Shown here one piece after another: positions 45,432 through 62,184 of a stretch of DNA of 64,000 nucleotides. This DNA comes from Clostridia bacterium. GTDB taxonomy: Bacteria; Bacillota; Clostridia; UMGS1883; UMGS1540. The stretch lies in the NCBI GenBank assembly GCA_045590195.1, contig JAZNQN010000044.1:19186-83185 (forward strand). Reading direction: 5' to 3'. The notes below the pieces were generated by a model that saw only the letters and a program-made list of their open reading frames with translations, did not search any database and was not told the DNA's origin. The position numbers were made by a program, and so were the translations under genes. The number at the start of each line of letters is the position of its first letter. The stretch's first letter is position 1.

Positions 45432-45449
45432 AACTACTCCTCTTTTCTT

Positions 45450-47980: not shown

Positions 47981-47990
47981 AATATTCACC

Positions 47991-49163
47991 TTAAAAATAA
48001 CTTACTTTAATTCTTTTACCCATTTTTTCAAGATGTTTGGATAACTCTTCTACCATATTCATTTTGATATTAAAATTTATGGGCAAATCAGGATTTTGAT
48101 GAGCAGGATTTACAGCTCTTCCAACATAAAAGTTAATATCGGTTGCTTCTTCAAACAAAAGTTGAGAAATTAACGACGCAGCATCTTTACCCATTTCCCA
48201 GTCATTATAAAGGCGGTTTTCATTAACAAAGTCCTCGGCATATTTAAGCACATGGCTCATTGTAATTACACCTTCAGTTACCAGGTCAACGCCATCAATT
48301 ATCGCTACTGGCGGAATTCCTTGTTTTTCAAACTTCAAAGTTGGTTTTACTTCCTTGCCAAGGTATTCGGCTGCAATTGAAGATGTTGTACCGCCGCAAA
48401 CAATGTGTTTACCCTCTTTTGCAAAGAAAAGTGCCATCATTTTTCTGCAATCATCTCTGTTTGATGGTGGACCAAAAACAAGGTTTATAGGCGCTCTTTT
48501 TCTTATTCTTACAACGCAGGCACTGGTATCATCGCCCGGTTCTCCGCCATAAAGTTTATTACATTCATCAGTTAAAATGGTTGCCAGGGTTTTTGCGTTA
48601 TATCCGGCACATTCAATAGTTTCCATAAACTCAGTTATCTGCTCAGTTTTCCAACCGAAATTATAAATATTTCCAATTCCTGCATGAGGACAACCATCGC
48701 TCATTGCAAGAAATAAATCGTTTTCGCAAAGCTTTATTCTCGAACGAAGCATCTTTTTATCGCCAATTGAAAATGTTTCCTGGTTATATTCAAAGTTCTT
48801 TCCGTCGCGAAGCAAAATTACAGGCGGATTATCATATTGAATAATTTCTGCAAACTCATTATTAACAATATGAATAATTGTAAATGTTGAATATGCCACT
48901 CCCCTTTGCGAACAAACGGGAAGTGTTGCTGCAATAGTTGAAACGCAGTCTTCAATTGACAGCCCTGCTGCCAGAAGAGTTGAAATTATTTTAGAAGTAA
49001 GTGTTGACAAAATGCCAGCTTTAACACCACTTCCAAGCCCATCGGCAAGAACAATTACAGATGAATTTTCGCCTGAGCTTACAACATCTATATGATCGCC
49101 GCAAAGCTCCTCACCGTGGTGGTTTAATGAGCGATATCCAATATCAGCACACAAATCATTCAT
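47991..49163 (-). CDS. SpoIIE/RsbU-family PP2C Ser/Thr phosphatase with C-terminal accessory domain (hydrogenase-associated regulator)
   Basis: 'LCGDHIDVV...VIVLADGLGSGVKA' PPM-type metal-binding motifs; overlaps hydS by 8 nt. Confidence 0.7.
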   Translation of the reverse strand: MNDLCADIGYRSLNHHGEELCGDHIDVVSSGENSSVIVLADGLGSGVKAGILSTLTSKIISTLLAAGLSIEDCVSTIAATLPVCSQRGVAYSTFTIIHIVNNEFAEIIQYDNPPVILLRDGKNFEYNQETFSIGDKKMLRSRIKLCENDLFLAMSDGCPHAGIGNIYNFGWKTEQITEFMETIECAGYNAKTLATILTDECNKLYGGEPGDDTSACVVRIRKRAPINLVFGPPSNRDDCRKMMALFFAKEGKHIVCGGTTSSIAAEYLGKEVKPTLKFEKQGIPPVAIIDGVDLVTEGVITMSHVLKYAEDFVNENRLYNDWEMGKDAASLISQLLFEEATDINFYVGRAVNPAHQNPDLPINFNIKMNMVEELSKHLEKMGKRIKVSYF

Positions 49164-50838
49164 CAGCTATTGTCTCCTTAAGTTTTGTAAGCGCAATTTT
49201 TGTTTCAGCAGCTGTTTCGCCAAGTAACGATGCAATTTCCTGAACAATGCGCATTTGCTTTTCAACAACTTTATCTGCTACTTCGATGGTTTCTGTCCCA
49301 ATTCTCTCTTTACGCTCTTTCTCTCTTTCCTCGGCAGTTACATCACGCAAAATGCAAATTATAATTCTATACTCTTTATCCGGAATAATTGTTTTTTCAA
49401 CATATTTGTCGTATTCTGCAAGATATTTTCTTCTGTTAGAAATCCTTCTTCCGCTTTCCATTGCATTTATAAACGGAGTAGGGTCTAAAATTCTTACAAC
49501 AGGCTCACCCATTACATCGGAAACAGATTTTACGTTCAAAATTTTTCTTGCGGAGTTGTTGATAAGCTGAACTTCAAGTTGTTCGTTTACAACAATAATT
49601 CCGTTAGGTGTGTTGTTAACTATTGTATCTGAGAAAACTTCAGCTTTATCTTTTAAAAACGGCAAACACATTGAAAGGTCGGCCTTTCCGTGGTATATTG
49701 CAATTGCTTTTTCACGGCAGGTATCATATCCACAGGAGCCACAGTTAAGCTCGTCTTCAGGACGAACTTTTCCCATTGTTTTCAGTACTTTGACTATTTC
49801 TTCATCGGCAGGTGGCTGAAGTCGTCTTTCAATAGGCTCAATGCCTTTTTGAAGTTCAGTAAAATCAGGCTGTGAAATTTCAAAGTCTTTTTCGCCTGCA
49901 TAATCAGAAACAGCTTTAAATTCACTCACAGGAGCTGAATTGAATTTTTCCATTATCGGACCGCAAATACAGCTTCCGCTGCAGGCCGACATTTCAATAA
50001 AGCATCCGTGTACTTTTCCGCTTTCAATATCACGAAGCGCTTCAATACAGTTATTAGTGCCATCAATGGCCATATATGTATATTCAGGAAGTCGCTCGTC
50101 CATTGTTTTTAATATACCTCCCGTTGTCGGGAAAAGCCTTGCACGGCTTTTTTCGGTAACATCTAGCTCTTTTTCAATCTCTATATTTTCTTCTTTGAAC
50201 CAGTTTGTAAGTTCATCGAAGGTTAAAACTGCGTCTACAATATCTCCGTAGTAATCACCCTCATCTTTTTTGGAAAGGCAGGGGCCGATAAATACTGTTT
50301 TCGCACCTGGATATTTCTTTTTAATTTCTATGGAATGAGCCTGCATAGGCGACATTGTGTTTGAAAGGTAAGGCAAAACAGAAGGAAAATACTTCTGAAC
50401 AAGCAAATTAACACTGTGGCAACAGGAAGAAATAAGAATATCAGGCTTTTCTTCACGAAGTTTGCGCTGGTATTCGTTTTTTACAATTGTTGCACCAATA
50501 GCAGTTTCTTCAGCATCGAAAAAGCCAAGTTTTAATAAAGCCTTTTTCATTGCCTCTATTCCGACACCATCATAATTTGCAATAAAAGACGGAGCAAGAG
50601 AAGCAACAACCTGTTCACCATTTGCAATCATTACTCTTACTTTTTCGCGCTGGTCTGTAATTTCTTTAGCATTTTGCGGACAAACAACAAAGCATTGACC
50701 GCATAAAATACACTCATTGCCAATAATATGTGCCTGATTACCTGAGAAACGAATGGCTTTTACGGGACAATGTCTAATACATTTATAACAGTTTTTACAG
50801 TTTGATTTTTTAAGTTTAAGCCATTCCACTATGCTCAC
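49156..50838 (-). CDS. hydS: Sensory [FeFe] hydrogenase HydS: ferredoxin + H-cluster-like domain with non-canonical motifs + C-terminal PAS domain
   Basis: H-cluster motif variants 'SSCCHSV' (for TSCCP), 'FIGPCLSKKDE', 'EMSACSGSCICGP' (for MACxGGCxxG). C-terminal PAS-like region 'NTPNGIIVVNEQLEVQLINNSARKIL'. Confidence 0.8.
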   Translation of the reverse strand: MSIVEWLKLKKSNCKNCYKCIRHCPVKAIRFSGNQAHIIGNECILCGQCFVVCPQNAKEITDQREKVRVMIANGEQVVASLAPSFIANYDGVGIEAMKKALLKLGFFDAEETAIGATIVKNEYQRKLREEKPDILISSCCHSVNLLVQKYFPSVLPYLSNTMSPMQAHSIEIKKKYPGAKTVFIGPCLSKKDEGDYYGDIVDAVLTFDELTNWFKEENIEIEKELDVTEKSRARLFPTTGGILKTMDERLPEYTYMAIDGTNNCIEALRDIESGKVHGCFIEMSACSGSCICGPIMEKFNSAPVSEFKAVSDYAGEKDFEISQPDFTELQKGIEPIERRLQPPADEEIVKVLKTMGKVRPEDELNCGSCGYDTCREKAIAIYHGKADLSMCLPFLKDKAEVFSDTIVNNTPNGIIVVNEQLEVQLINNSARKILNVKSVSDVMGEPVVRILDPTPFINAMESGRRISNRRKYLAEYDKYVEKTIIPDKEYRIIICILRDVTAEEREKERKERIGTETIEVADKVVEKQMRIVQEIASLLGETAAETKIALTKLKETIADE

Positions 50839-51095
50839 TCCCCTATATTTAATACTTTAAGTATATGTTCCTTAAAAAAGTCATCGAACTTATGTATTGT
50901 AAGTCCTACAAAAACTTCATCGTTTATCTGAACGGTTACGCCTTCGCGATTGCATTTTCCAATGCAAAAGCTTCCGGCAACAGAAACTTTGTCGCCAATA
51001 TTATAATCACTTACTGCTTTTTCAAAAGCATTTGCTATTTCATATGAACCTTTAATATGACAGGAACTGCCAATACAAACTAATACTTTAAGCAA
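50835..51095 (-). CDS. Small thioredoxin-like [2Fe-2S] ferredoxin (paralog 2)
   Basis: 'VCIGSSCHIKGS...GSFCIGKC' four-Cys pattern; TTG start. Paralog of the 51161-51409 gene. Confidence 0.6.
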   Translation of the reverse strand: MLKVLVCIGSSCHIKGSYEIANAFEKAVSDYNIGDKVSVAGSFCIGKCNREGVTVQINDEVFVGLTIHKFDDFFKEHILKVLNIGE

Positions 51096-51107: not shown

Positions 51108-51152
51108 CCTTTTTGATTTTTTAAAAGGCCGCAGTGCGGTTGCACCGCGGCC
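51108..51152 (-). terminator. Intra-operon GC-rich hairpin terminator/attenuator between the two ferredoxin paralogs
   Basis: ggccgcagtgc-ggtt-gcaccgcggcc (one mismatch) followed on the minus strand by ttttaaaaaatc. Confidence 0.55.
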
Positions 51153-51160: not shown

Positions 51161-51409
51161 TTATTTTACAAGAGGAAGTATATTATCTTTGAAAAACGCT
51201 CTTGCCTCTTTTTCGGTAATTCGGAATGTTTTGTCATCTACTTTTACAGAAACGCCAACATTTGTACAATTTTTCATACAAAATGACGCCGCAAGTTCAA
51301 TTTTATCATGAAGATTATTATCTTCAATCATATGCTGAAATGATGACACAACATTATGTGCTCCGTTTAAATGACACGCGCTTCCAATGCATACACTAAT
51401 TTTTATCAT
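51161..51409 (-). CDS. Small thioredoxin-like [2Fe-2S] ferredoxin (paralog 1)
   Basis: 'VCIGSACHLNGA...ASFCMKNC'. Confidence 0.6.
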   Translation of the reverse strand: MIKISVCIGSACHLNGAHNVVSSFQHMIEDNNLHDKIELAASFCMKNCTNVGVSVKVDDKTFRITEKEARAFFKDNILPLVK

Positions 51410-51411: not shown

Positions 51412-53109
51412 TTATTCCTCCGATTTTTTCGCATAGTTCACATGTAAAAGTTTATGAACTTTACCTTTAATAATATTGTTATAAAGTGACGAAACAATTG
51501 GGTTTTCTTCTGAACGACGTATGCTTAAGAGTCTGTCAGATTTATAAAGTCCGCTCTTTCTGGCAGCAATCTCGTGCTGCATTGCAAATGGCTGACCGCC
51601 ACCATTTATACATCCGCCAGGGCAAGCCATAACTTCAATAAAGTCAATCTGTTCGCCGTCTTTTACGCGCTGAAGAACTTTTTCAGCATTTGCAAGACCG
51701 CTTACAACTACAATATGAAGTTCTCTTTCTCCATACATAAGTTTAAATTCTTTAATGCCATCAAGGCCACGCTGACCGCAATCTGCAATAGAAAGAAGTC
51801 CGCTTCTTGATTTATTTGCAGCAACACGGCGAAGTACAGCTTCTGTAACACCACCTGTTACACCAAATATTACACCTGCACCTGAAATAGTACCAAATGG
51901 CATATCGACAGCTTCAGGCTCTAAGGTATCAAACATAATACCTGCTTCTTTAACCATTGAAACAAGTTCCTGAGTTGTAATAACTGCATCAACATTAGGC
52001 TGACCGTCCATTTTGAACTCATCTCTTGCAGCTTCAAACTTTTTAGCTGTACAAGGCATTACTGCAACATGGAACATTTTTCTTGAAGCTTCTTTTGCCT
52101 GGTCTTTCAAAATTGAAGCCATCATCTGCATTGGGCTGCGGCAAGTTGATACATTAGGAAGAAATTCAGGGAATTTCTTTTCGCAGAACTGAATCCAGCC
52201 AGGGCAGCATGAAGTAATAAGTGGAAGATTTTCGCCTTTTTCAAGTTTAGTAAGAAATTCTTCACTTTCTTCCAAAACAGTTAAATCTGCTCCGAGAGAA
52301 GTATCATAAATTTCATCAAATCCCATACGATGAAGAGCGGCAACAATTTTACCCATTACATCTTCCCCGTCGCGAACACCAAGTTCTTTACCAAGTGCAA
52401 CTCTTACCGCAGGAGCAACCTGAACAGTTGTTTTAACTTCAGGGTCGCTTATTGCTTTCCAAACGGGAGCAATATTATTTTTAACAACAAGAGCACCTGT
52501 TGGACATACTGCAACACACTGACCACAGCCAACACATGGGCTTTCTGAAAGTGGTTTATTAAACGCAGTGCTGATTGTCATATTAGAGCCACGGTATGCA
52601 AAGTCGATAGCGCCAACATTCTGAACCTCGTTACACATTCTCACACAGTCGCCGCAAAGAATACATTTGCCTGTATCTCTTGTAATGCATACGGAAGACG
52701 TATCTTCATCTTTTGTTGAAACTGCAGTATTAGGGAAACGAACGCCTTCAATATTAAAGCGCATTGCCAAATCCTGCAATTTACATTTTGCGTTGTTCTC
52801 ACAGGTTGTACAGTCGCGGCAATGGTTAGCAAGAAGAAGTTCGAGAATATTTTTTCTGTATCTTCTAAGGCGCTCTGTATTTGTTTTTATGTTCATACCT
52901 GCACGAGGAGGTGTTGAACAAGCGGCATCAAGTCCGCCTCTTTCGTTTTCTACCATACACATACGGCATGCACCGTAAACCGAAAGCTCGGAATGATAGC
53001 AGAATGTAGGCATTTTTACGCCTGTTTTATTTATAAGTTCAAGAAGATTTTTCTCTCCGTTAATTTCAACGGGGATACCGTCGATTGTCAAATACTGTTT
53101 CTCAGTCAT
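51412..53109 (-). CDS. hydA: [FeFe] hydrogenase catalytic subunit HydA of a trimeric (NuoG-like N-terminus) hydrogenase, copy 1
   Basis: N-terminal 2Fe-2S and NuoG-like clusters; H-cluster 'TSCCPGWIQF', 'MPCTAKKFEA', 'EVMACPGGCINGGGQP'. Confidence 0.9.
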   Translation of the reverse strand: MTEKQYLTIDGIPVEINGEKNLLELINKTGVKMPTFCYHSELSVYGACRMCMVENERGGLDAACSTPPRAGMNIKTNTERLRRYRKNILELLLANHCRDCTTCENNAKCKLQDLAMRFNIEGVRFPNTAVSTKDEDTSSVCITRDTGKCILCGDCVRMCNEVQNVGAIDFAYRGSNMTISTAFNKPLSESPCVGCGQCVAVCPTGALVVKNNIAPVWKAISDPEVKTTVQVAPAVRVALGKELGVRDGEDVMGKIVAALHRMGFDEIYDTSLGADLTVLEESEEFLTKLEKGENLPLITSCCPGWIQFCEKKFPEFLPNVSTCRSPMQMMASILKDQAKEASRKMFHVAVMPCTAKKFEAARDEFKMDGQPNVDAVITTQELVSMVKEAGIMFDTLEPEAVDMPFGTISGAGVIFGVTGGVTEAVLRRVAANKSRSGLLSIADCGQRGLDGIKEFKLMYGERELHIVVVSGLANAEKVLQRVKDGEQIDFIEVMACPGGCINGGGQPFAMQHEIAARKSGLYKSDRLLSIRRSEENPIVSSLYNNIIKGKVHKLLHVNYAKKSEE

Positions 53110-53113
53110 TTTC

Positions 53114-54988
53114 TCAAACCTCCTTTATAGCCTTGAATGCACAAGCATCAATACAGCTACCGCAACGAATACATTTTGAAAGGTTAATTGTAAATGGTTC
53201 CTTAATTTTTCCTTCGATAGCTTCAACAGGACACTGACGGGCACATTTTGAGCAACCTTTACAAAGCTCAGGGTCAATAACAATTGTTTTAAGTTTCTGA
53301 CATTCACCCGCTGGACAACGCTTGTCGTAAATATGAGCTTCATATTCATCACGGAAGTTTTTAATTGTACTTACTACCGGAGAAGGAGCACTTTTGCCAA
53401 GTCCGCAAAGAGCTGTAGCCGAAATTGTATCAGCAAGCTCGAGAAGGAGTTCAATATCTCCATCCTGACCTTCGCCTGCGACAATTCTTTCAAGAATCTG
53501 AAGCATTCTCTTTGTACCTTCACGGCAAGGAACGCATTTACCACAGCTTTCGTTCTGTGTAAAGTTCATAAAGAATCTTGCAACCTCTACCATACAGGTA
53601 TTTGAGTCCATAACAACAAGTCCGCCGGAGCCTATCATAGCTCCAACCTTTTTAAGTGTATCAAAGTCAAGAGGAAGGTCTAAATGTTCTTTTGTAAGAC
53701 AAGCACCTGAAGGGCCGCCTATCTGTACGGCTTTAAATTCGCCGTCGCCTTTCATACCGCCACCGATATCAAAAATAATCTCGCGGAGAGTTGTTCCCAT
53801 AGGAACTTCGATAAGGCCTGTATTTGCAATGTTACCTGTAAGAGCAAAAGCTTTTGTGCCTGCACTTCCCTCTGTTCCGATACCGAGATACCAGTCTGCG
53901 CCACGGTTTATAATTTCAGCAACGTTTGCATATGTTTCAACATTATTAAGTACTGTTGGTTTATCAAAAAGACCATGTTCAACAGTTCTTGGAGGTTTAA
54001 CTCTCGGGAAACCACGTTTACCTTCGATTGAAGCAGTAAGCGCACTACCTTCGCCACAAACAAACGCACCTGCACCACGGCTGATGTGCATTTTAAACGA
54101 AAAGCCTGTTCCGAGAATATTTTCGCCAAGAAGGCCTAGTTCTTCTGCCTGAGTTATTGCATTTTTAAGTCTGTCAACAGCGAGAGGATATTCAGCACGA
54201 ACATATATGTAACCTTCACATGCGCCACAGGCAACACCTGCAATCATCATACCCTCAAGCATTCTGTGAGGGTCACCTTCCATAATACTTCTGTCCATAA
54301 ATGCACCGGGGTCACCCTCGTCACCATTACAAACAACATATTTAATAGGCTCTTTCTGGCGTTTAACCTGTTCCCATTTTCTTCCGGCAGGAAATCCGCC
54401 GCCCCCACGTCCGCGAAGGTTTGATTTACTGATTTCAGATACAATGTCATCAGCAGTCATATCAAAAAGTGCTTTTTCAAAAGCGGAATAACCACCAATG
54501 GCAATATATTCACGAATTGATTCGGCATCAATTTTACCGCAGTGTTCCAAAACGATACGGGTTTGCTGTTTATAAAAAGGAATTTCATCCTGTTTTTTGT
54601 ATGAAACGCCATCTTTTTTGCAGGCAAGGCGGTCAATGGGTTCTCCTTTAAGAACTGTTTTTTCAATAATTTCTTCACAGTCTTCAACTTTTACTTTTGT
54701 GTAAAGCCAACCCTGTGGGTCGATTCTGAGAAGTGGGCCCATTTCACAAAAACCATGGCAACCGCTCTTTTTAAGGCCTATGCTTTCATCGTGGGGATCA
54801 ACTTCAAGCTCCACTGCAACTTTAATGCCTCTTTCATCACAAAGTTCTTTAAGTCTGTCATAAATTTTAAGTGAGCCACCGGCAACGCAACCTGTTCCGG
54901 CACAAACAATGATTTTTTCGGTTTGTAGTTCATAAGACTTTTTCACTTCTTCACGAAGCTTCATAAAATCTTCTCTGTTTTTAAGCAT
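53114..54988 (-). CDS. hydB: NADH-binding flavoprotein subunit HydB (NuoF-like, with N-terminal thioredoxin-like 2Fe-2S and C-terminal 2x[4Fe-4S]), copy 1
   Basis: NuoF-like 'GGGGFPAGRKWE' and 'CNGDEGDPGAFMDR', 'ESCGKCVPCREG', C-terminal ferredoxin motifs. Confidence 0.9.
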   Translation of the reverse strand: MLKNREDFMKLREEVKKSYELQTEKIIVCAGTGCVAGGSLKIYDRLKELCDERGIKVAVELEVDPHDESIGLKKSGCHGFCEMGPLLRIDPQGWLYTKVKVEDCEEIIEKTVLKGEPIDRLACKKDGVSYKKQDEIPFYKQQTRIVLEHCGKIDAESIREYIAIGGYSAFEKALFDMTADDIVSEISKSNLRGRGGGGFPAGRKWEQVKRQKEPIKYVVCNGDEGDPGAFMDRSIMEGDPHRMLEGMMIAGVACGACEGYIYVRAEYPLAVDRLKNAITQAEELGLLGENILGTGFSFKMHISRGAGAFVCGEGSALTASIEGKRGFPRVKPPRTVEHGLFDKPTVLNNVETYANVAEIINRGADWYLGIGTEGSAGTKAFALTGNIANTGLIEVPMGTTLREIIFDIGGGMKGDGEFKAVQIGGPSGACLTKEHLDLPLDFDTLKKVGAMIGSGGLVVMDSNTCMVEVARFFMNFTQNESCGKCVPCREGTKRMLQILERIVAGEGQDGDIELLLELADTISATALCGLGKSAPSPVVSTIKNFRDEYEAHIYDKRCPAGECQKLKTIVIDPELCKGCSKCARQCPVEAIEGKIKEPFTINLSKCIRCGSCIDACAFKAIKEV

Positions 54989-55466
54989 TGTTTATCTCCT
55001 CTCTGAGTTTTTTCAAAAGCTCTGATGCTTTATCCGGTGTCATTGCAGAATATACAACATCGTTTACTGTAAGTACCGGAGCAAGACCACAAGCGCCGAG
55101 ACATGATACTGTTTCAAGTGTAAAGTTTAAGTCGTCGGTAGTTTTTTTGCTTTCGCTAAGTCCAAGTTCACTGCGAAGACGCTCCAAAATCGGAATGGAA
55201 CGGCGAACATGACAAGCTGTTCCGTCGCATATTTTTATTACATATTTTCCCTTTGGTTCAAGAGAAAAGTTTTCGTAAAATGTTGCTACGCTGAAAATCC
55301 TAACTTCAGGAATGTTAAGCTGTTTTGCAAGATGTGGAAAAATATCTTTTGGCAAGTAATGATATTCTTCCTGAATTTCCTGCAAAATTGCGATAATTGC
55401 CTGTGGATTTTTGTCGTATTTATCGACTATTTTATCTACGATTGCAAAATCAAACTGTTCACTCAT
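54981..55466 (-). CDS. hydC: NuoE-like thioredoxin-like [2Fe-2S] subunit HydC, copy 1
   Basis: 'CDGTACHVRRS...CLGACGLAPV'. Confidence 0.85.
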   Translation of the reverse strand: MSEQFDFAIVDKIVDKYDKNPQAIIAILQEIQEEYHYLPKDIFPHLAKQLNIPEVRIFSVATFYENFSLEPKGKYVIKICDGTACHVRRSIPILERLRSELGLSESKKTTDDLNFTLETVSCLGACGLAPVLTVNDVVYSAMTPDKASELLKKLREEINNA

Positions 55467-55488
55467 AGTTTTACTCCTTTGTTTTTAA

Positions 55489-56898
55489 TTATTTATTCTT
55501 AAGGTATTCATCGATTGCCTTGGCAGCAGTTTTACCTGCGCCCATAGCAGATATAACCGTTGCAGCACCTGTTACTGCATCGCCGCCTGCATAAACTGCA
55601 TCGCGTGATGTAAGGCCATCTTCATTTACAATAATTCCGCCTCTGTTATTAACTTCAAGGCCCTTTGTAGTATCTTTTATAAGCGGGTTAGGCGAAGTAC
55701 CAATAGACATTACAACTGCATCAACCTCTAACTCATATTCTGAACCCGGAATTTCTACAGGACGTCTTCTTCCTTTTTCATCAGGTTCGCCAAGTTCCAT
55801 TTTCATAAGGCGAATACCTGTTACAAAACCGTTTTTAGGATCTCTTGGATCCTCAGGATTGTTATAACCCAGAATTTCAACCGGGTTTCTGAGAAGCTGA
55901 AAATCGATTCCCTCTTCTTCAGCATGTTCAACTTCTTCCCTTCTTGCAGGAAGTTCTTCCATTGAACGACGGTAAATAATATAAACCTTCTCAGCTCCAA
56001 GTCTTAAAGCAGTTCTTGCAGCATCCATAGCAACATTACCGCCGCCTACAACTGCAACACGGCCACCTTTCATAATAGGTGTGCTGCCATCTTCACGATA
56101 AGCTTTCATGAGATTGCTTCTTGTTAAGAATTCGTTTGCAGAATAAACGCCTTTAAGAGATTCGCCGGGAATTCCCATGAAATTTGGAAGGCCTGCACCG
56201 CTGCCTACAAAAACAGCTTCATAGCCCATATCAAAAAGCTCGTCGATTGTAAGGGTTTTACCGATTACAACATTAGGCTCAACATTTACGCCAAGTTCTT
56301 TTAAAGTTTCAACTTCTTTAGCAACTATTGCCTTTGGAAGACGAAATTCAGGAATACCATAAACAAGTACACCGCCTGCTGTGTGAAGTGCTTCATAAAC
56401 TGTTACGTCGTAACCTTTTTTAGCAAGGTCACCTGCACAGGTAAGGCCTGAAGGGCCGCTACCAACAACGGCAACTTTGTGGCCGTTAGACAATGGTTTT
56501 TCAGCCTTTTCCTTGGCGTTTTCATTATGCCAGTCAGCAACAAAACGCTCAAGTCGGCCAATGCCTACAGGCTCAAACTTAATTCCAAGAGTACATTTAC
56601 TCTCACACTGTGTTTCCTGTGGGCAAACTCTTCCGCAAACCGCAGGAAGTGAAGATGATTTTGAAATAGACTGATATGCACCTTCAAAATCGCCATTTTT
56701 AATATGAGTAATAAAATCAGGAATATCAATATTTACAGGACAGCCTGCAACGCAAGGCTGGTTTTTACAATTTAAGCATCTTTCAGCTTCTCCTACAGCC
56801 ATTTCCTGAGTATAACCAAGAGCAACTTCATTGAAGTTATGGCCCCTCACATCAGCAGGCTGTGTTGGCATTTCATGCTTTTTAGGATTTATTGCCAT
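55489..56898 (-). CDS. nfnB: NfnB/GltD/SudA-family subunit (2x[4Fe-4S] + FAD + NAD(P)H)
   Basis: N-terminal 'CLNCKNQPCVAGCPV' and 'CGRVCPQETQCESKC'; Rossmann 'VAVVGSGPSGLTCAGDLA' and 'VAVVGGGNVAMDAA'. Confidence 0.75.
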   Translation of the reverse strand: MAINPKKHEMPTQPADVRGHNFNEVALGYTQEMAVGEAERCLNCKNQPCVAGCPVNIDIPDFITHIKNGDFEGAYQSISKSSSLPAVCGRVCPQETQCESKCTLGIKFEPVGIGRLERFVADWHNENAKEKAEKPLSNGHKVAVVGSGPSGLTCAGDLAKKGYDVTVYEALHTAGGVLVYGIPEFRLPKAIVAKEVETLKELGVNVEPNVVIGKTLTIDELFDMGYEAVFVGSGAGLPNFMGIPGESLKGVYSANEFLTRSNLMKAYREDGSTPIMKGGRVAVVGGGNVAMDAARTALRLGAEKVYIIYRRSMEELPARREEVEHAEEEGIDFQLLRNPVEILGYNNPEDPRDPKNGFVTGIRLMKMELGEPDEKGRRRPVEIPGSEYELEVDAVVMSIGTSPNPLIKDTTKGLEVNNRGGIIVNEDGLTSRDAVYAGGDAVTGAATVISAMGAGKTAAKAIDEYLKNK

Positions 56899-56923
56899 TT
56901 TAAATTCCTCCTTCTAAATCAGT

Positions 56924-57772
56924 TCAGGCATTTTTGAAAAGATTGCAAGCTTCTTCATATGCGTGACGCTCAAAATCTGCATACATTCTGCCTCTTGACA
57001 TTGCCTCGTCAAAATCGATTTCGTAGGCATTAAATTCAGGCCCGTCAACACATGCAAACTTTGTAACCTTTTTGCCATCCTGGTTCAAAGTAAGTCGGCA
57101 ACCGCCGCACATACCAGTTCCGTCGATCATAATAGGATTCATTGAAGCTGTTACAGGAACACCAAAAGGTTTGGCAGTTAGAGTAACAAACTTCATCATA
57201 ATAAGCGGACCAATTGTGATGATAATGTCAAATTTTTCTCCGCCTTCAAGCATTTCTTTAAGCGGAACAGTTACGTTACCGTGACGACCATAAGAACCGT
57301 CATCAGTCATTAAAATAAGGTTGTCCGAGCATTCTCTGAACTCATCTTCCAAAATTACAAGATTTTTATCTCTGAAACCGATAATGCTTGTAACTTCAGC
57401 CCCAAGGCGATGAAATTCCTGCGCAACAGGCATAGCAATAGCACAGCCAACGCCTCCGCCTACGATACAAACTTTTTTAATACCTTCAGTATGAGTTGCT
57501 CTTCCAAGAGGACCAACAAAATCTTCAATGAACTCACCTTCGTTTTTCTGACCGAGTTTTGCAGTTGTTCCTCCAACTATTTGAAAAATTATTTTAACTG
57601 TGCCATCTTCCTTGTTGCAACCTGCAACTGTAAGCGGTATTCTTTCGCCTTCGCTGTCGACACGTAAAATAATAAACTGACCTGGTTTTGCCTTTGCTGC
57701 AACTAACGGAGCTTCAATTTCCATCTGGGTTACAGTTGGGTTTAACACTCTTTTACGCACAATTTTGTACAT
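56924..57772 (-). CDS. nfnA: NfnA/SudB/PyrK-family subunit (FAD/NAD-binding with 2Fe-2S)
   Basis: 'PGQFIILRV' FNR-like fold, 'VGGGVGCAIAMP', C-terminal 'GMCGGCRL'. Confidence 0.75.
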   Translation of the reverse strand: MYKIVRKRVLNPTVTQMEIEAPLVAAKAKPGQFIILRVDSEGERIPLTVAGCNKEDGTVKIIFQIVGGTTAKLGQKNEGEFIEDFVGPLGRATHTEGIKKVCIVGGGVGCAIAMPVAQEFHRLGAEVTSIIGFRDKNLVILEDEFRECSDNLILMTDDGSYGRHGNVTVPLKEMLEGGEKFDIIITIGPLIMMKFVTLTAKPFGVPVTASMNPIMIDGTGMCGGCRLTLNQDGKKVTKFACVDGPEFNAYEIDFDEAMSRGRMYADFERHAYEEACNLFKNA

Positions 57773-57914
57773 AAAAATTCACCTCTCTATATTTTAAATA
57801 ATTGTTATATTACATACATAACTTTACATAATATATAATAACACAATTACACTTTTTTGCATATTATAAAATTTGCATATCCGTTATATACTTATAGGCA
57901 TATGGTTATTTCGT

Positions 57915-57958
57915 TTTTACATAACAACAGCGCGATACATTTATTATGTACCGCGCTG
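57915..57958 (-). terminator. Hairpin after hydA copy 2 (weak T-run)
   Basis: cagcgcgatac ... gtaccgcgctg, one mismatch. Confidence 0.3.
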
Positions 57959-57974
57959 CTTAAAATTATTTAAA

Positions 57975-59711
57975 TCAGTATTTCTTTCTTTCTACATAGT
58001 GAGTATGTAAAAGGTCGTGAGCTTTGTGTGAACCGGGTTCGCCAAAGTACTCTTTATAGAGTTTGTCAACATCAGGATTCTTATGACTCTGTCTTACAGT
58101 AGATGCTTTGTCTTCAGCATAAAGGGCTTTTGCCCTTTCAGCCTTAACATCCATATCCATACGAAGCTTAGCCGGAACAATCGGCTGACCGCCACCTGTT
58201 ACGCAACCACCGGGACAAGCCATAATTTCGATAAAGTGATAATCTGCTTTGCCCTCTTTAATACTGTCGAGAAGTGCACGTGCATTTCCAAGGCCATGAG
58301 CAATAGCAACTTTAACTTCTTTACCCCCGAGAGTAAGAGCAGCTTCTTTAATGCCCTCAACACCTCTTACTGCCTCAAAATCAAGGCTTGCAGGCTCTTT
58401 ACCGTCAAGAATTTCGGCAACTGTACGAAGTGCTGCTTCCATAACACCACCTGTTGCACCAAAGATAACACCTGCGCCTGTATCCATACCAAATGGGTCA
58501 TCGAATTTTGCATCTTCAAGAGAAGCAAAATCTATACCCTGTTCTTTAATCATTTTAGCAAGTTCTCTTGTTGTAAGAACGATATCAACATCTTGAAATT
58601 CGTTGCCAAGTTCTTCTCTGCCAGCTTCGAACTTTTTAGCTACGCAAGGCATAACGGAAACTACAACCATTTTTTCAGGGTCGATATTATTCTTTTCTGC
58701 ATAGTAAGATTTAAGAACAGCACCAAACATTTCGTGAGGAGATTTACAGCTTGAAAGGTTTGGAATAAATTCAGGATAGTAATGTTCACAGAACTTAACC
58801 CAACCAGGGCTGCAAGAAGTTATAAGTGGCAACTTACCACCATCTTTAATTCTGTTTATAAGCTCTGTTCCTTCTTCCATAATTGTAAGGTCGGCAGCTG
58901 TATTTGTATCAAAAACTTTGTCAAATCCGAGCATCTTGAGTGCATTTGCCATTTTACCTGTAACAGGTGTGCCAATTTCAAATCCGAATTCTTCGCCAAG
59001 TGCCGCTCTTACAGCAGGAGCTGTCTGAACGATAACATATTTTTCAGGATCGGCAATTGCTTCCCAAGTCTGTGCAATACTGTCTTTTTCATAAAGTGCA
59101 CCAACAGGACAAGCAGCAATACACTGACCACAGTTAACACAGGCAACATCGCCAAGTGATTGTTCAAACGCACAAGCAATTGAAGTGTTGAAACCACGGT
59201 TAACAGCGTCAATAACAGATACAGTTTGAATATTTTTACAAGCACTTACACAGCGACGGCAGAGAATACATTTGTTGTTATCACGAACAATTGATGCTGA
59301 TGAATCATCAATTTCCTGGACATTTCTCTCGCCTTCAAAAGCAATATCACGAACACCGAGTTCTTCAGCCAAAGTCTGAAGTTCACAATTTCTGTTTCTT
59401 TCGCAAGTAAGACATCTTTTGTCATGAGCGGAAAGAATAAGCTCAAGTGTGATTTTTCTTGCTTTTCTGACTTTTTCGCTGTTTGTTACAACCTCAAGGC
59501 CTTCTGAAACAGGATAAACACAAGCCGCCTGAAGTGTTCTTGCAGTTGAAACTTCAACTACGCACATACGGCATGAACCTGTTTTGCTTACATCCTTTAA
59601 ATAACAAAGAGTAGGGATGTGAATATTTGCACTGCGTGCAGCTTCAAGAACGGTATAATTTGCAGGAACGCTAAGGCTCTTGCCGTTAATTTTAATATTT
59701 ACATTTTCCAT
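57975..59711 (-). CDS. hydA: [FeFe] hydrogenase catalytic subunit HydA of a trimeric hydrogenase, copy 2 (with C-terminal extension)
   Basis: 'TSCSPGWVKF', 'MPCVAKKFEA', 'EIMACPGGCVTGGGQP'; extra ~60-aa C-terminal tail. Confidence 0.9.
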   Translation of the reverse strand: MENVNIKINGKSLSVPANYTVLEAARSANIHIPTLCYLKDVSKTGSCRMCVVEVSTARTLQAACVYPVSEGLEVVTNSEKVRKARKITLELILSAHDKRCLTCERNRNCELQTLAEELGVRDIAFEGERNVQEIDDSSASIVRDNNKCILCRRCVSACKNIQTVSVIDAVNRGFNTSIACAFEQSLGDVACVNCGQCIAACPVGALYEKDSIAQTWEAIADPEKYVIVQTAPAVRAALGEEFGFEIGTPVTGKMANALKMLGFDKVFDTNTAADLTIMEEGTELINRIKDGGKLPLITSCSPGWVKFCEHYYPEFIPNLSSCKSPHEMFGAVLKSYYAEKNNIDPEKMVVVSVMPCVAKKFEAGREELGNEFQDVDIVLTTRELAKMIKEQGIDFASLEDAKFDDPFGMDTGAGVIFGATGGVMEAALRTVAEILDGKEPASLDFEAVRGVEGIKEAALTLGGKEVKVAIAHGLGNARALLDSIKEGKADYHFIEIMACPGGCVTGGGQPIVPAKLRMDMDVKAERAKALYAEDKASTVRQSHKNPDVDKLYKEYFGEPGSHKAHDLLHTHYVERKKY

Positions 59712-59730
59712 AATTATCTGCTCCCCTCTC

Positions 59731-61611
59731 TTAGTGTTTTTCTATTGCGCCAAATTTACAGCTATCCATACACACGCCACATTTGATACATTTGTCTGTA
59801 TCAATTGTAAATGGCGATTTGATTTCGCCTGAAATTGCGCCAACAGGACATTTTCTTGCACAGAGTGAACACCCTTTACATTTATCTGCAACAATCTCGT
59901 ATTTAAGAAGTTTTTTACATACGCCTGCAGGACATTTTTTATCACGAACGTGAGCAATGTATTCATCCCTGAAATAACGAAGTGTGCTGAGTACAGGGTT
60001 AGGAGCTGTCTGGCCAAGGCCACAAAGTGAAGAAGTTTTAATAGCTTCACAAAGCTCTTCAAGCTTATCAATATCTTCCATTGTTCCCTTACCTTCTGTA
60101 ATTTTTGTAAGAATTTCAAGAAGGCGTTTTGTACCGATACGGCATGGCGAACATTTACCACAGCTCTCATCAACTGTAAATTCAAGGAAGAATTTAGCAA
60201 TATCAACCATACAGTTATCTTCATCCATTACAATAAGACCACCGCTGCCCATCATAGAGCCAATGCTCATAAGCGAATCGTAATCAATAGCTGTATCAAT
60301 CAAAGATGCAGGAATACATCCTCCCGAAGGGCCACCTGTCTGAGCGGCTTTAAATTTCTTACCGTTTGGAATTCCGCCGCCAATTTCTTCGATGATTTCA
60401 CGAAGAGTTGTTCCCATAGGAACTTCAACAAGACCTGTGTTATTGATTTTACCACCAAGAGCAAATACTTTTGTACCTGCGCTCTTTTCGGTACCAATAC
60501 CTTTAAACCAAGCGGCACCATTATTTATAATCATAGGAATATTTGCATAAGTTTCAACATTATTCAGAAGAGTTGGTTTCTGCCACAAACCTTTAACAGC
60601 CGGGAACGGAGGACGTGGACGTGGTTCGCCACGGTGACCTTCAATAGAAGTCATAAGAGCTGTTTCCTCGCCGCAAACAAATGCACCGGCACCAAGACGA
60701 AGCTCAAGGTTAAATTCGAAATCAGTTCCAAAAATATTTTTACCAAGAATTCCATATTCCCTTGCCTGTTCAATAGCAATATTAAGGCGGTCAACCGCGA
60801 TAGGATATTCGGCACGAATATAGATATAACCCTGCTTAGCGCCTACTGCATAAGCTGCAATTGACATAGCCTCTATAATAGTGTGAGGATCACCCTCAAG
60901 AACACTACGGTCCATAAACGCACCAGGGTCGCCTTCATCGGCATTACATGCAACATATTTTTCTTCGCCGGGAGCATTTGCAGTAAACAACCATTTCATA
61001 CCTGTTGAGAAGCCGGCACCGCCACGGCCACGAAGACTTGAGTTTTTAACTTCATCAATTACTTCAGCAGGTGTCATACTTGTAAGAACTTTTTCAAGGG
61101 CTTTATAACCATCGAAAGCTATGTATTCATCAATATTTTCAGGATTAACAACACCACAGTTACGAAGAGCAAGACGCTGTTGTTTTCTGTAGAAATTAAC
61201 ATCGTTAAGACCTTTGATATTTTCACCATCAATTGTTTCCTGATAAACAAGGCGTTTTACAACGTTTCCACCCTTAAGGTGTTCACTGACAATTTCCTTA
61301 ACATCTTCAATTTTTACGCAGCTGTAAAAACATCCTTCAGGATATACTATCATAATCGGGCCAAGTGCACAAAGGCCAAAGCAACCGGTCTGAACAACCT
61401 GAATTTCGTCTGCAATACCAAAATCTGCAAGCTGTTTTTTAAGTTCTGTAATAATTTTGGGCGAACCCGATGAAGTACAACCTGTACCGCCACATACGAG
61501 CACATGGTGGCGAATTTTATCGGGAACCACATTTTTATCTTTACGAAGTGAAATTCTTTTAAAAGTTTCACTACGTATAGCATTTATTTCATTTAAGCTT
61601 TTCATAATCAA
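59731..61611 (-). CDS. hydB: NuoF-like flavoprotein subunit HydB, copy 2
   Basis: Same architecture as copy 1 ('GGAGFSTGMKW', 'CNADEGDPGAFMDR', 'ESCGKCSPCRIG'). Confidence 0.9.
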   Translation of the reverse strand: MIMKSLNEINAIRSETFKRISLRKDKNVVPDKIRHHVLVCGGTGCTSSGSPKIITELKKQLADFGIADEIQVVQTGCFGLCALGPIMIVYPEGCFYSCVKIEDVKEIVSEHLKGGNVVKRLVYQETIDGENIKGLNDVNFYRKQQRLALRNCGVVNPENIDEYIAFDGYKALEKVLTSMTPAEVIDEVKNSSLRGRGGAGFSTGMKWLFTANAPGEEKYVACNADEGDPGAFMDRSVLEGDPHTIIEAMSIAAYAVGAKQGYIYIRAEYPIAVDRLNIAIEQAREYGILGKNIFGTDFEFNLELRLGAGAFVCGEETALMTSIEGHRGEPRPRPPFPAVKGLWQKPTLLNNVETYANIPMIINNGAAWFKGIGTEKSAGTKVFALGGKINNTGLVEVPMGTTLREIIEEIGGGIPNGKKFKAAQTGGPSGGCIPASLIDTAIDYDSLMSIGSMMGSGGLIVMDEDNCMVDIAKFFLEFTVDESCGKCSPCRIGTKRLLEILTKITEGKGTMEDIDKLEELCEAIKTSSLCGLGQTAPNPVLSTLRYFRDEYIAHVRDKKCPAGVCKKLLKYEIVADKCKGCSLCARKCPVGAISGEIKSPFTIDTDKCIKCGVCMDSCKFGAIEKH

Positions 61612-61632
61612 ACCTCCAAGTTCAAATCTGGT

Positions 61633-62121
61633 TTATTCCATATACTTTTTCAAGATGCCTTCAACTTCGTCAACGGTAAGTTTTCCGTAAACGTCTTCGC
61701 CAACTGTCATAACAGGAGCAAGACCGCAGGCACCGATACATCTTGTAGCATCGATAGAGAAAAGACCGTCGGGAGTACATTCTCCAACTTCTATTCCCAA
61801 AATTTCCTTAACCTTCTCCAGAATAAGATTTGAACCTTTTACATAACATGCAGTACCAAGACAAACACCTATCTGATATTTGCCCTTTGGATTAAGTGAA
61901 AACTGAGCATAAAAAGTTACAACTCCATAAATTTCAGCCAAAGGAATATTAAGTCCTTCTGCAATCATTGTCTGCACTTCGATTGGCAGATATCCATAAA
62001 TTTTCTGCGCTTCGTGCAAAACAGGAATAACTGCGCCGGGCTGATCTTTGTGCATTTCAATAACTTCGTTAAGCTTTGCAGCCTGTTCACTTGTTCCTGC
62101 AAATGGTATTGTTTGTGCCAT
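61633..62121 (-). CDS. hydC: NuoE-like [2Fe-2S] subunit HydC, copy 2
   Basis: 'CLGTACYVKGS...CIGACGLAPV'; GGAGGA RBS. Promoter-like TTGTGT-17-TATAAT upstream. Confidence 0.85.
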   Translation of the reverse strand: MAQTIPFAGTSEQAAKLNEVIEMHKDQPGAVIPVLHEAQKIYGYLPIEVQTMIAEGLNIPLAEIYGVVTFYAQFSLNPKGKYQIGVCLGTACYVKGSNLILEKVKEILGIEVGECTPDGLFSIDATRCIGACGLAPVMTVGEDVYGKLTVDEVEGILKKYME

Positions 62122-62166: not shown

Positions 62167-62184
62167 TTGTTAATATTATATCAA
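62167..62184. promoter_or_regulatory. Second Rex-like box (minus strand TTGATAT-aata-TTAACAA) between the -10 and RBS of hydC copy 2
   Basis: Read directly; 12/14 match to TTGTTAAnnnnTTAACAA. Confidence 0.3.

Follow-up and report, generated by a model that had tools for sequence, protein, structure and literature searches.

An nfnAB-hydCBA gene cluster encoding a putative NADP-type [FeFe] hydrogenase beside a second HydABC in a Clostridia bacterium

Introduction

The HydABC hydrogenase of Thermoanaerobacter kivui reduces NADP+ and not NAD+ (PMC8578170), and Arg340 of its HydB subunit contacts the bound NADP+ (PMC10021017). The 2014 T. kivui genome paper had wrongly predicted NAD from homology (PMC4320612), which makes sequence-based cofactor calls in the HydB family risky. 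A functional partnership of the T. kivui enzyme with NfnAB has already been proposed and modelled biochemically (PMC8578170). In Acetobacterium woodii, HydA1 has an unusual Ser (Ser301) as a ligand of the H-cluster [4Fe-4S] (PMC10021017). Genetic work in Thermoanaerobacterium found the Hfs, HydABCD and NfnAB gene sets to be jointly needed (PMC11837493), and in C. kluyveri nfnAB lies inside a catabolic cluster (PMC5861303). Here, we describe a locus in a 64,000-nucleotide stretch of a Clostridia bacterium contig (hereafter the window) in which nfnAB directly precedes one of two hydCBA sets.

Results

The locus occupies the minus strand and reads, in order, hydC2-hydB2-hydA2 (62121-57975), a strong hairpin, and nfnA-nfnB-hydC1-hydB1-hydA1 followed by a small [2Fe-2S] gene (57772-51161). 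Domains were called with Pfam and NCBIfam.

62167-62184 (no strand): candidate Rex-like inverted repeat TTGTTAATATTATATCAA, two mismatches to the clostridial consensus TTGTTAANNNNTTAACAA
61633-62121 (-): hydC2, NuoE-like [2Fe-2S] subunit, 162 aa; PF01257, E 5e-52
59731-61611 (-): hydB2, NuoF-like FMN subunit, 626 aa; best solved relative A. woodii HydB (7q4v_B, 1006 bits)
57975-59711 (-): hydA2, [FeFe] hydrogenase catalytic subunit, 578 aa; NF040763 group A6, 933 bits against a cut-off of 765
57926-57960 (-): 15-bp hairpin 3' of hydA2, which probably terminates the copy 2 operon; weak U-tract, -24.9 kcal/mol, z -5.2
57835-57843 (-): extended -10-like element TGtTATTAT, putative promoter upstream of nfnA
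56924-57772 (-): nfnA, small subunit of NADH-dependent ferredoxin:NADP+ oxidoreductase, 282 aa; NF004862, 374 bits against a cut-off of 220
55489-56898 (-): nfnB, large subunit, 469 aa, GltD-like with 2x[4Fe-4S], FAD and NADPH site; TIGR01316, 573 bits against a cut-off of 472
54981-55466 (-): hydC1, NuoE-like, 161 aa; best solved relative T. kivui HydC, 156 bits
53114-54988 (-): hydB1, NuoF-like FMN subunit, 624 aa; best solved relative from T. kivui, 810 bits
51412-53109 (-): hydA1, [FeFe] hydrogenase catalytic subunit, 565 aa; canonical H-cluster motifs TSCCPGW, MPCTAKKFE and EVMACPGGCINGGGQP
51161-51409 (-): fdx, 82-aa Trx-like [2Fe-2S] protein (C-x4-C...C-x3-C), last gene of the unit; weak PF01257 match
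51123-51152 (-): intrinsic terminator 3' of fdx, 11-bp GC-rich hairpin (51127-51152) plus UUUU; -26.8 kcal/mol, z -5.4

As a sequence-only reading of the window had proposed, there are two complete NuoE/NuoF/NuoG-like HydABC gene sets that are diverged paralogs, both by their domains and by pairwise identities of 45% (HydA), 53% (HydB) and 45% (HydC). Judged by this divergence, the two hydrogenases are old and distinct lineages and not products of a recent duplication. HydB2 has a Trx-like 2Fe-2S domain at its N-terminal end, a 2x[4Fe-4S] domain at its C-terminal end and a NuoF-like part that carries an NAD-type site (GEETAL...PRPRPPFP, 60601-60672). The HydA2 motif TSCSPGW has a Ser in place of one Cys ligand of [4Fe-4S]H, a feature shared with its best solved relative, A. 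woodii HydA1 (800 bits). Copy 2 resembles the A. woodii enzyme, which would make it NAD(H)- and ferredoxin-dependent. The C-terminal tail ascribed to HydA2 proved not to exist: its 13-aa excess comes down to small indels inside the small-subunit-like domain, and both HydA proteins end at one and the same position. HydA1 scores higher against T. kivui HydA (552 bits) than against that of A. woodii (459), and falls below the NCBIfam A6 cut-off (681 vs 765).

NfnA and NfnB are of standard length and align end to end with NfnAB of T. maritima and P. furiosus. The best solved relatives of NfnA are the P. furiosus NfnI small subunit and T. maritima NfnA (full-length alignment, E 1e-79), while NfnB matches T. 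maritima NfnB (4ylf_B) over residues 6-467 with E 5e-160.

The genes from nfnA to fdx are closely packed, with gaps of 25 nt (nfnA-nfnB), 22 nt (nfnB-hydC1), -8 nt (hydC1-hydB1), 4 nt (hydB1-hydA1) and 2 nt (hydA1-fdx). The start of hydC1, 22 nt past the nfnB stop, is preceded by an AAAGGAG ribosome-binding site, and no stable structure forms at the junction (-2.2 kcal/mol, z +2.1), in keeping with the earlier observation of 22-25-nt spacing and no terminator before copy 1. No hairpin occurs in the unit until past fdx; the only hairpins of the strong type in the locus are those 3' of hydA2, whose stability was matched by 0 of 200 shuffles, and 3' of fdx. On spacing and hairpins, nfnA-nfnB-hydC1-hydB1-hydA1-fdx is almost certainly one six-gene transcription unit, which supports the predicted co-transcription of nfnAB with copy 1. 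Counting against a single transcript, Yeguia hominis has a terminator-like hairpin between nfnB and hydC. A promoter block, TTGTGTTAT(T/A/C)AT, is kept upstream of nfnA in two relatives (L161 and L162) that both lack copy 2 upstream; among the relatives compared, copy 2 in this position was seen in this genome only. A homologue of fdx follows hydA1 in most related loci. For copy 2, the proposal of its own promoter with a Rex-like box stands in part: the repeat is present and overlaps a TATAAT (62175-62180) some 50 nt upstream of hydC2, but two matches in the window against 1.36 expected from shuffles is no enrichment, and the box is statistically no better than chance.

The nucleotide sites of the two HydB subunits differ clearly, with CGEET...PPFP (NAD-like) in HydB2 and CGEGS...PPRT (T. 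kivui-like) in HydB1. The HydB1 signature, CGEGSAL...PRVKPPR at 53987-54058, places Gly314 and Arg334 at positions that align with T. kivui HydB Ser320 and Arg340, whereas Glu and Phe occupy them in HydB2 and in the NAD-dependent enzymes of A. woodii, T. maritima and A. mobile. The E. coli NuoF residue at the place of Gly314 is number 183, a Glu (E183) for which we assume the role assigned to it by mutagenesis. The two positions covary: among 104 diverse representatives, a non-Glu residue was accompanied by Arg, His or Lys in 18/18 cases and Glu by a basic residue in 3/86 (Fisher p = 2e-17), and the pairing appears in several separate clades of a distance tree. The HydB1 signature is present in 11/11 nfn-adjacent HydB of other genomes, in all 120 closest homologues (120/120), and in 79/80 metagenome loci. 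T. kivui HydB is 58% identical to HydB1, the same as for HydB2, and does not group with HydB1 in the distance tree; the shared signature is therefore convergent and not inherited. We infer the NADP specificity of HydB1 from two residues only. Copy 1 has its best match in the T. kivui enzyme, which is specific for NADP, and its own predicted nucleotide substrate is NADP(H) and not NAD(H).

Linkage of nfnAB to a hydrogenase recurs in 11/64 related species genomes (17%), with hydC at most 71 nt from nfnB in seven and at most 1.24 kb away in four more, one of which has a NAD kinase gene in between. The view that NfnAB is normally free-standing is therefore only roughly true (53/64 NfnB loci, 83%, are unlinked), as it passes over this recurring minority and the C. 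kluyveri cluster. Viewed from the hydrogenase, most HydB1-type loci lack the linkage: 10 of 39 clusters have nfnAB no more than 10 kb away, with nfnB directly upstream in five and other orientations in the remaining 5/39.

Downstream of the fdx terminator is an hfsABCD-like operon (TIGR04105, 555 bits against a cut-off of 450), with the gene order described for R. albus and Thermoanaerobacterium (PMC11837493).

46547-51095 (-): hfsABCD-like operon, four genes
50835-51095 (-): small [2Fe-2S] protein
49156-50838 (-): HydS, PAS-domain sensory hydrogenase
47991-49163 (-): PP2C/SpoIIE phosphatase
46547-47989 (-): monomeric ferredoxin-type [FeFe] hydrogenase, HydA2/HfsD type

Discussion

The locus would be a hydrogen-metabolism island of known enzymes. 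Its two HydABC hydrogenases, both electron-bifurcating/confurcating, would be independent and of different lineages, copy 2 having its own promoter and terminator. We regard it as probable that NfnAB and an NADP-type HydABC1 are two separate, soluble enzymes that are co-transcribed because they have substrates in common and that are linked through the pools of NADP(H) and ferredoxin. NfnAB would catalyse NADH + reduced ferredoxin + 2 NADP+ -> 2 NADPH and HydABC1 would catalyse NADPH + reduced ferredoxin -> 2 H2, both reversibly, for a net NADH + 3 Fd(red) -> 4 H2. Since NADPH/NADP+ is a more reducing couple in the cell than NADH/NAD+, H2 evolution through copy 1 should continue at H2 pressures that stall the NADH-dependent copy 2. 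We infer the flux direction and the physiological rationale of this route; the 1:3 NADH:ferredoxin stoichiometry, which does not match plain glycolysis, counts against it.

An ordinary NADH- and ferredoxin-dependent HydABC1 running in the uptake direction could instead supply its two products, NADH and reduced ferredoxin, to NfnAB, a two-enzyme route (2 H2 + 2 NADP+ -> 2 NADPH) to which the adjoining ferredoxin hydrogenase may contribute by H2 cycling. HydABC and NfnAB match exactly in stoichiometry, a scheme of HfsD, HydABCD and NfnAB has been proposed from Thermoanaerobacterium genetics (PMC11837493; PMC13277313), and the window has homologues of the three gene sets side by side. We nevertheless find this route unlikely, as the HydB1 site shares the Arg of the NADP-specific enzyme and is without the Glu, all nfn-adjacent HydB carry the NADP signature, and none of 80 genome loci showed an NAD-type hydCBA close to nfnAB. 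Adjacency without specific function, with nfnAB merely bordering an indel-prone hydrogenase island or at most sharing a general redox regulon with it, would suit the 83% of unlinked NfnB loci, the restriction of an upstream copy 2 to this genome, and two close relatives (L009 and L022) in which the whole hydrogenase block is missing and nfnAB is followed directly by ldh-fumC. It is improbable given that the linkage appears in seven or more distinct NfnB clades and in three arrangements (upstream, downstream and opposite strand), that its frequency is 17-30% where random placement in a 20-kb neighbourhood would give <1% for genomes of a few Mb, and that the 8-71 nt spacing persists even where HydA has diverged down to 60%.

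The sequence-only reading had raised a possible supercomplex. In such an assembly NfnAB, docked on HydABC1 along with the small ferredoxin-like protein, would tie H2 directly to both nucleotide pairs, NADP(H) and NAD(H). Tight spacing and the inferred co-transcription speak for it, as does the precedent of the NfnB-like module in a HydBC-type core of the Stn/Nfn-Bfu enzymes (PMC9304861; PMC10482914); the structure matches of NfnB include 8oh5_C, 9n5u_A and 9bov_A. Nothing in the locus points to such a complex, however, and we consider it highly improbable. NfnA, NfnB and HydA1 are neither fused nor altered in length and carry no additional domains, and NfnAB is indistinguishable from copies without an adjoining hydrogenase: these are 76-92% identical, with linked and unlinked NfnB interspersed in the tree. 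Some lineages have nfnAB on the opposite strand, kilobases away or with genes inserted, and Stn itself has its NfnB-like part fused into a HydA-like subunit and no NfnA, which is not the case here. The link between NfnAB and the hydrogenase does appear to involve NADP(H), as had been suggested, but the NADP-type site of HydB1 itself would account for it more simply than a supercomplex. The separate, pool-coupled enzymes that we favour would thus be known enzymes joined, in a gut or rumen Clostridia genome, in an unreported but ordinary way.

Comparison with known systems

Among solved structures, the T. kivui enzyme scores best with all three copy 1 subunits (HydA 552, HydB 810 and HydC 156 bits) and has the same domain set. 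Both have a non-acidic HydB residue at the NuoF-183 position and Arg at position 340, the canonical HydA Cys ligand (TSCCP), a HydB N-terminal insertion and a short HydA C-terminal region. They differ in that HydB1 has Gly and not Ser at the first signature position and, at 58% identity, is not sister to T. kivui HydB in the distance tree. The T. kivui hydABC genes (TKV_c19580-19600) are far from nfnAB (TKV_c22270-22280), whereas here both appear to form one operon with a small [2Fe-2S] gene; T. kivui is a thermophilic acetogen, and the host here a mesophilic gut or rumen fermenter. The NAD+-dependent HydABC(D) of A. woodii (PDB 7q4v/8a5e) is a close relative of copy 2 (HydB 1006, HydA 800 bits), with the same CGEET...PPFP site and TSCSPGW Ser ligand, but no hydD was seen beside copy 2 and the host context differs.

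T. maritima (4ylf) and P. furiosus NfnI (5jca) have the same full-length, two-gene nfnA-nfnB unit, which here lies at the promoter-proximal end of an operon with hydrogenase genes. The Stn/Nfn-Bfu enzymes (Sporomusa ovata StnABC, 8oh5; P. furiosus NfnABC, 9n5u) join an NfnB-like NADP(H) module to a bifurcating core of the HydB/HydC type, the NfnB-like domain being fused into a HydA-like subunit that lacks an H-cluster, with no NfnA, whereas complete and separate NfnAB and HydABC are encoded here. The HfsABCD (HydS-HydA2) operon of Thermoanaerobacterium has its like immediately downstream of fdx; in that genus the three gene sets have been described as separate clusters and the hydrogenase is assumed to be NADH-linked, whereas here all three lie in one window.

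Organization of the hydrogen island

The minus-strand region 62390–46547 comprises three blocks, each the size of a transcription unit. Coordinates, domains and gaps were re-derived and bear out the gene anatomy described in the sequence-only reading.

Features of the hydrogen island (gaps are to the preceding gene)
62121–61633, minus strand, hydC2 (Block 1)
61611–59731, minus strand, hydB2 (Block 1; gap 21 nt)
59711–57975, minus strand, hydA2 (Block 1; gap 19 nt)
57926–57960, 15-bp hairpin 3′ of Block 1, from folding of intergenic regions (−24.9 kcal/mol, z −5.2)
57772–56924, minus strand, nfnA (Block 2)
56898–55489, minus strand, nfnB (Block 2; gap 25 nt)
55466–54981, minus strand, hydC1 (Block 2; gap 22 nt)
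54988–53114, minus strand, hydB1 (Block 2; gap −8 nt)
53109–51412, minus strand, hydA1 (Block 2; gap 4 nt)
51409–51161, minus strand, fdx, 82-aa thioredoxin-like [2Fe-2S] protein (Block 2; gap 2 nt)
51123–51152, GC-rich hairpin and U-run at the end of Block 2 (−26.8 kcal/mol, z −5.4)
Block 3, minus strand, hfsABCD-like operon: small [2Fe-2S] protein, PAS-domain sensory hydrogenase (HydS), PP2C/SpoIIE phosphatase, and monomeric group-B [FeFe] hydrogenase (TIGR04105, 555 bits)

The gene order of Block 3 is that of R. albus hydS/hydA2 and Thermoanaerobacterium hfs (PMC11837493). A generic scan for promoter-like (55 vs. 41 expected) and terminator-like sites (12 vs. 14 expected) was uninformative, and intergenic regions were therefore folded directly. 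Block 1 is followed by an AT-rich spacer of 202 nt. The promoter-like block upstream of nfnA, with its extended −10 element, is conserved in two related loci (L161 and L162), which supports a transcript beginning upstream of nfnA. The 22-nt gap between nfnB and hydC1 contains solely a ribosome-binding site (AAAGGAG) and shows no folding. An Rfam search of the island region found no riboswitch or leader RNA. In the homologous locus of Yeguia hominis (L036), a terminator-like hairpin with a T-run (11711–11736) is located ~30 nt upstream of hydC, within a 360-nt gap after nfnB, and could be an attenuator or the boundary of a separate transcription unit. Co-transcription of nfnAB and hydCBA is thus not universal.

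The sequence-only reading also placed a Rex-like box upstream of copy 2. Such a box is present at 62167–62184, with two mismatches to TTGTTAANNNNTTAACAA and overlapping the −10 element TATAAT, but matches of this type occur in the window at chance frequency (2 vs. 1.36 expected), which leaves it a candidate only. No site of this type was found upstream of nfnA, a search of the promoters for the Thermus/Bacillus-type Rex consensus TTGTGAANNNNTTCACAA returned nothing, and no rex gene is present among the window ORFs checked. The best Rex-like box of the window (TTGATAATTTTTTAACAA, 46483–46500, one mismatch) lies in the 140-nt gap upstream of an ldh/mdh gene.

Directly downstream of the island, a minus-strand run of genes (33988–46406) encodes an L-lactate/malate dehydrogenase, fumarase C, an HdrB-like CCG protein, an HdrA-like FAD/Fe-S protein, two Fe-S proteins, a PyrK-like FAD/NAD protein, a 2Fe-2S/4Fe-4S protein, a fumarate-reductase-type flavoprotein, and an Asp-Al_Ex transporter. 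This run resembles the “succinate operon” of Pseudoclostridium thermosuccinogenes, which has a bifurcating Flx-Hdr complex (PMC7282089). The same gene set follows the island in L161 and partly precedes nfnAB in L162. The window also carries a 6S RNA gene (22133–22328, plus strand, 55.8 bits), a tRNA-Pro(CGG) gene (2079–2155, minus strand), and a gene for the sporulation protein YunB (10229–10918), the last of which suggests a spore-forming host. Relatives of its NfnB and HydB1 are found in Clostridia, Ruminococcaceae, and Oscillospiraceae assemblies from goat, sheep, and human gut.

Two diverged hydrogenases of the bifurcating type

HydABC hydrogenases (group A3/FeFe-Bfu) were recognized by three adjacent genes: a HydA with three H-cluster motifs and an N-terminal 2Fe-2S/NuoG-type 4Fe-4S/2x[4Fe-4S] F-domain, a NuoF-like FMN/NAD(P)H subunit HydB with added N-terminal Trx-like [2Fe-2S] and C-terminal 2x[4Fe-4S] domains, and a NuoE-like HydC. 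The H-cluster motifs are TSCCPGW, MPCTAKKFE, and EVMACPGGCINGGGQP in HydA1 and TSCSPGW, MPCVAKKFE, and EIMACPGGCVTGGGQP in HydA2, and both proteins contain PF13510, PF10588, Fer4, and PF02906. HydB1 and HydB2 each carry PF01257, PF01512, PF10589, and Fer4 and align over their full length to solved HydB structures, while PF01257 is found in HydC1 and HydC2. By these sequence criteria, both copies fit the electron-bifurcating group A3/FeFe-Bfu enzymes.

The two hydCBA sets are indeed complete and diverged, as had been noticed from the sequence, with full domain sets in both and identities of 45% (A), 53% (B), and 45% (C). The C-terminal tail attributed to HydA2 is absent, its 13 additional residues being small internal indels in the alignment to HydA1. 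The best match of copy 2 is the A. woodii enzyme (HydB 1006 bits, HydA 800 bits). In A. woodii HydA1, one of the Cys residues that normally ligate the H-cluster [4Fe-4S] is replaced by Ser301 (PMC10021017). HydA2 has the same substitution in its TSCSPGW motif (58803–58823, residues 297–303), whereas HydA1 keeps the Cys; being common to the A. woodii enzyme, the Ser ligand is no mark of inactivity. For copy 1, the T. kivui enzyme is the best match in every subunit: A, B, and C score 552, 810, and 156 bits against T. kivui and 459, 739, and 120 bits against A. woodii.

Upstream of nfnA, an amylomaltase gene is found in L161 (93% HydB1 identity) and an HU gene in L162 (91%), in the place of copy 2, and none of 80 NfnB-centred genome loci contains copy 2. 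The tandem hydrogenase position is thus peculiar to this genome. These absences in the nearest relatives, the 45–53% identity, and the differing characterized lineages led us to reject a recent tandem duplication. The conserved unit is nfnAB-hydCBA1-fdx.

The nucleotide site of HydB

The two NAD(P) sites, whose comparison the sequence-only reading had proposed, differ sharply. HydB1 has Gly314 and Arg334 (GAGAFVCGEGSAL...PRVKPPRT), whereas HydB2 has Glu and Phe (GAGAFVCGEETAL...PRPRPPFP), as do the NAD-dependent enzymes of A. woodii, T. maritima, and A. mobile. The HydABC of T. kivui reduces NADP+ and not NAD+ (PMC8578170), and its cryo-EM structure shows a Gly-rich loop, Phe205, and Arg340 holding the bound NADP+ (PMC10021017). 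The corresponding site of T. kivui HydB is CGESTAL...PRVRPPRT, in which Arg340 (the Arg of PPRT) is equivalent to HydB1 Arg334. The Glu of CGEE(T/S)AL, kept in the NAD enzymes and HydB2, is lost in both HydB1 (Gly314) and T. kivui HydB (Ser320). In a gap-free alignment, Gly314 falls at position 183 of E. coli NuoF and position 185 of T. thermophilus Nqo1. Substitution of Glu183 in NuoF reportedly enables complex I to use NADPH. Copy 1, the nfn-linked hydrogenase, is accordingly predicted to be NADP(H)-dependent.

HydB1 and HydB2 are each 58% identical to T. kivui HydB, and HydB1 and T. kivui HydB fall in separate clades, not as sisters, in a simple neighbour-joining tree of 145 sequences without support values. 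Copy 1 as a T. kivui orthologue was rejected on this BLASTP identity (58%) and tree position, and the NADP assignment of HydB1 therefore rests on the site, not on orthology. We suggest that HydB1 works like the T. kivui enzyme, with no claim to a shared clade; judged from these sequences, their likeness at the nucleotide site is convergent. A tblastn search of plasmids for the NAD-dependent R. albus HydB gave nothing above 53% identity.

The pairing of the two positions was followed in 104 diverse NuoF/HydB-type proteins with an intact CGE motif, each representing a 50%-identity cluster. Where the first position is not Glu, the second, ~20 residues later (HydB1 314 and 334), is Arg, His, or Lys in 18 of 18 proteins, compared with a basic residue in 3 of the 86 with Glu (Fisher p = 2e-17, a statistic that ignores phylogeny). 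In a distance tree, the 18 non-Glu proteins are scattered over several separate clades; the signature thus arose repeatedly, which argues that it is functional. Loss of Glu together with gain of Arg/His/Lys is a candidate for a general NAD/NADP switch of Bfu-type enzymes. Nearly all members of the HydB1 clade share the signature, with 120/120 among the closest homologues and 79/80 among metagenome loci. The sole exception in the HydB1-type clade (L150, 10001–11866, 72% identity) has an NAD-like site (CGEETAL...PPLT), with hydS-PP2C upstream and nfnAB absent within 10 kb.

Recurrent linkage of nfnAB and hydCBA

The NfnB-centred scan took one genome per species and yielded 64 loci with sufficient downstream sequence. 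In seven of these, two R. flavefaciens assemblies among them, hydC lies 8–71 nt from nfnB, and in a further four, including Yeguia hominis NSJ-40, hydCBA is located 0.18–1.24 kb downstream. The nfnAB-adjacent HydB proteins all carry the Gly/Arg signature (11/11). The HydB1-centred scan comprised 39 metagenome clusters at 97% identity, with nfnB directly upstream in 5 and hydS-PP2C in 9; nfnAB was found within 10 kb, downstream or on the other strand, in 5 more. A random gene pair would be expected within a 20-kb neighbourhood in <1% of genomes of this size, which makes the association genuine but facultative.

Neighbouring genes vary. In the close relatives L009 and L022, ldh-fumC directly follows nfnAB and the hydrogenase block is missing. 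Across L009, L022, L003, L034, and L062, some loci have nfnAB followed by ldh-fumC and others the hfs-like operon (hydS-PP2C-hydA2) alone, which indicates modular gain and loss of the hydrogenase blocks beside nfnAB. A second, divergent NfnAB-like pair (~47% NfnA and ~61% NfnB identity to the window proteins) is found just downstream of hydCBA-fdx in L110 (13855–16052, same strand) and L129 (8270–10500, opposite strand). In L056, an NAD kinase gene (4938–5795; E 6e-45 against models of that family) separates nfnB from the hydC of a hydCBA set that carries the NADP signature. NAD kinase is the enzyme that makes NADP+, and its gene is the third NADP-related gene of that cluster. The apparent nfnAB-hydCBA unit of Pseudoclostridium thermosuccinogenes (RS10790–RS10810) was set aside, as its hydrogenase of ~466 aa is more likely of the HfsD type. 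Our literature search found no published report of the nfnAB-hydCBA operon arrangement; these are known enzyme families in a recurrent but apparently undescribed arrangement.

NfnAB, proposed electron flow, and alternative explanations

NfnAB was recognized by two neighbouring genes, one encoding a PyrK-like small subunit (FAD/[2Fe-2S]) and the other a GltD-like large subunit (2x[4Fe-4S]/FAD/NADPH), both at full length relative to solved NfnAB. NfnA (NF004862, 374 bits, cut-off 220; 5jca_S, E 1e-79) and NfnB (TIGR01316, 573 bits, cut-off 472; 4ylf_B, E 5e-160) align end to end with NfnAB of T. maritima and P. furiosus, and additional domains are absent. They share 76–92% identity with unlinked copies in other families. 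In a simple neighbour-joining tree of NfnB, without support values, linked and free copies are interspersed, and linkage occurs in at least seven clades.

Should copy 1 use NADP(H), NfnAB could convert NADH + Fd(red) + 2 NADP+ to NAD+ + Fd(ox) + 2 NADPH, and HydABC1, turning over twice, could convert 2 NADPH + 2 Fd(red) to 4 H2. The net reaction would be NADH + 3 Fd(red) → 4 H2, by contrast with 2 NADH + 2 Fd(red) → 4 H2 for copy 2. Under physiological conditions, the NADPH couple lies ~100 mV below the NADH couple (PMC9304861; PMC6288185), so the Nfn route would pay additional ferredoxin for driving force. This gain could count at high H2, or when NADH drains to the adjacent lactate/succinate genes.

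A neutral adjacency of nfnAB and hydCBA is contradicted by linkage that recurs in several arrangements and clades. The sequence-only reading raised a possible supercomplex. In its fullest form, NfnAB and HydABC1 would join with the small [2Fe-2S] protein in one soluble assembly, with internal electron exchange between the Nfn and hydrogenase Fe-S chains. A physical supercomplex has a precedent in Stn/Nfn-Bfu (PMC9304861; PMC10482914). There, however, an NfnB-like domain is fused into a HydA-like subunit (BfuA) that lacks the H-cluster, and NfnA is absent, whereas HydA1 (565 aa) contains the H-cluster domain but lacks a GltD-like one, and nfnB is a separate 469-aa gene. The lengths, domains, and tree of NfnAB reveal no specialization, which is not the pattern of a docking partner dedicated to the hydrogenase, and we consider such a supercomplex very improbable. 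The interspersed tree, the relatives with ldh-fumC, and the standard NfnAB together fit co-regulation of two free, substrate-sharing enzymes.

Co-regulated free enzymes might also run the other way, with an NADH-linked HydABC1 working in the uptake direction and feeding NfnAB, as in the hydrogen-cycling scheme of Thermoanaerobacterium (PMC11837493; PMC13277313). The contiguity of the nfnAB, hydCBA, and hfs-like sets lends considerable support to a functional triad, but the nucleotide site of HydB1 speaks against NADH, and we favour an NADP(H)-linked HydABC1.

Implications and comparison with known systems

Among the H2 producers annotated in rumen and gut metagenomes, bifurcating hydrogenases of group A3 predominate, and their NADH linkage is routinely assumed. 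Members of the HydB1-type clade are frequent in gut assemblies from goat, sheep, and human, where they carry the annotation “NuoF”. If this clade does use NADPH and is fed by NfnAB, models of electron flow in fermenters would need a second route that differs in its NADH:ferredoxin ratio and is driven more strongly, which would bear on predicted H2 thresholds and methane mitigation. The two-residue signature (Glu vs. small; Phe/Tyr vs. Arg/His) may serve as a cheap NAD/NADP predictor across the Bfu family. The relevance to anaerobic bioenergetics and to rumen and gut H2 metabolism is moderate and mainly for specialists.

The contiguous nfnAB, hydCBA, and hfs-like operon provide independent genomic support for the three-system cooperation proposed from Thermoanaerobacterium genetics. 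A metabolic model of T. kivui already pairs NfnAB with HydABC (PMC8578170). In T. kivui, however, nfnAB and hydABC are ~270 loci apart (PMC4320612), whereas in the window they form one predicted operon.
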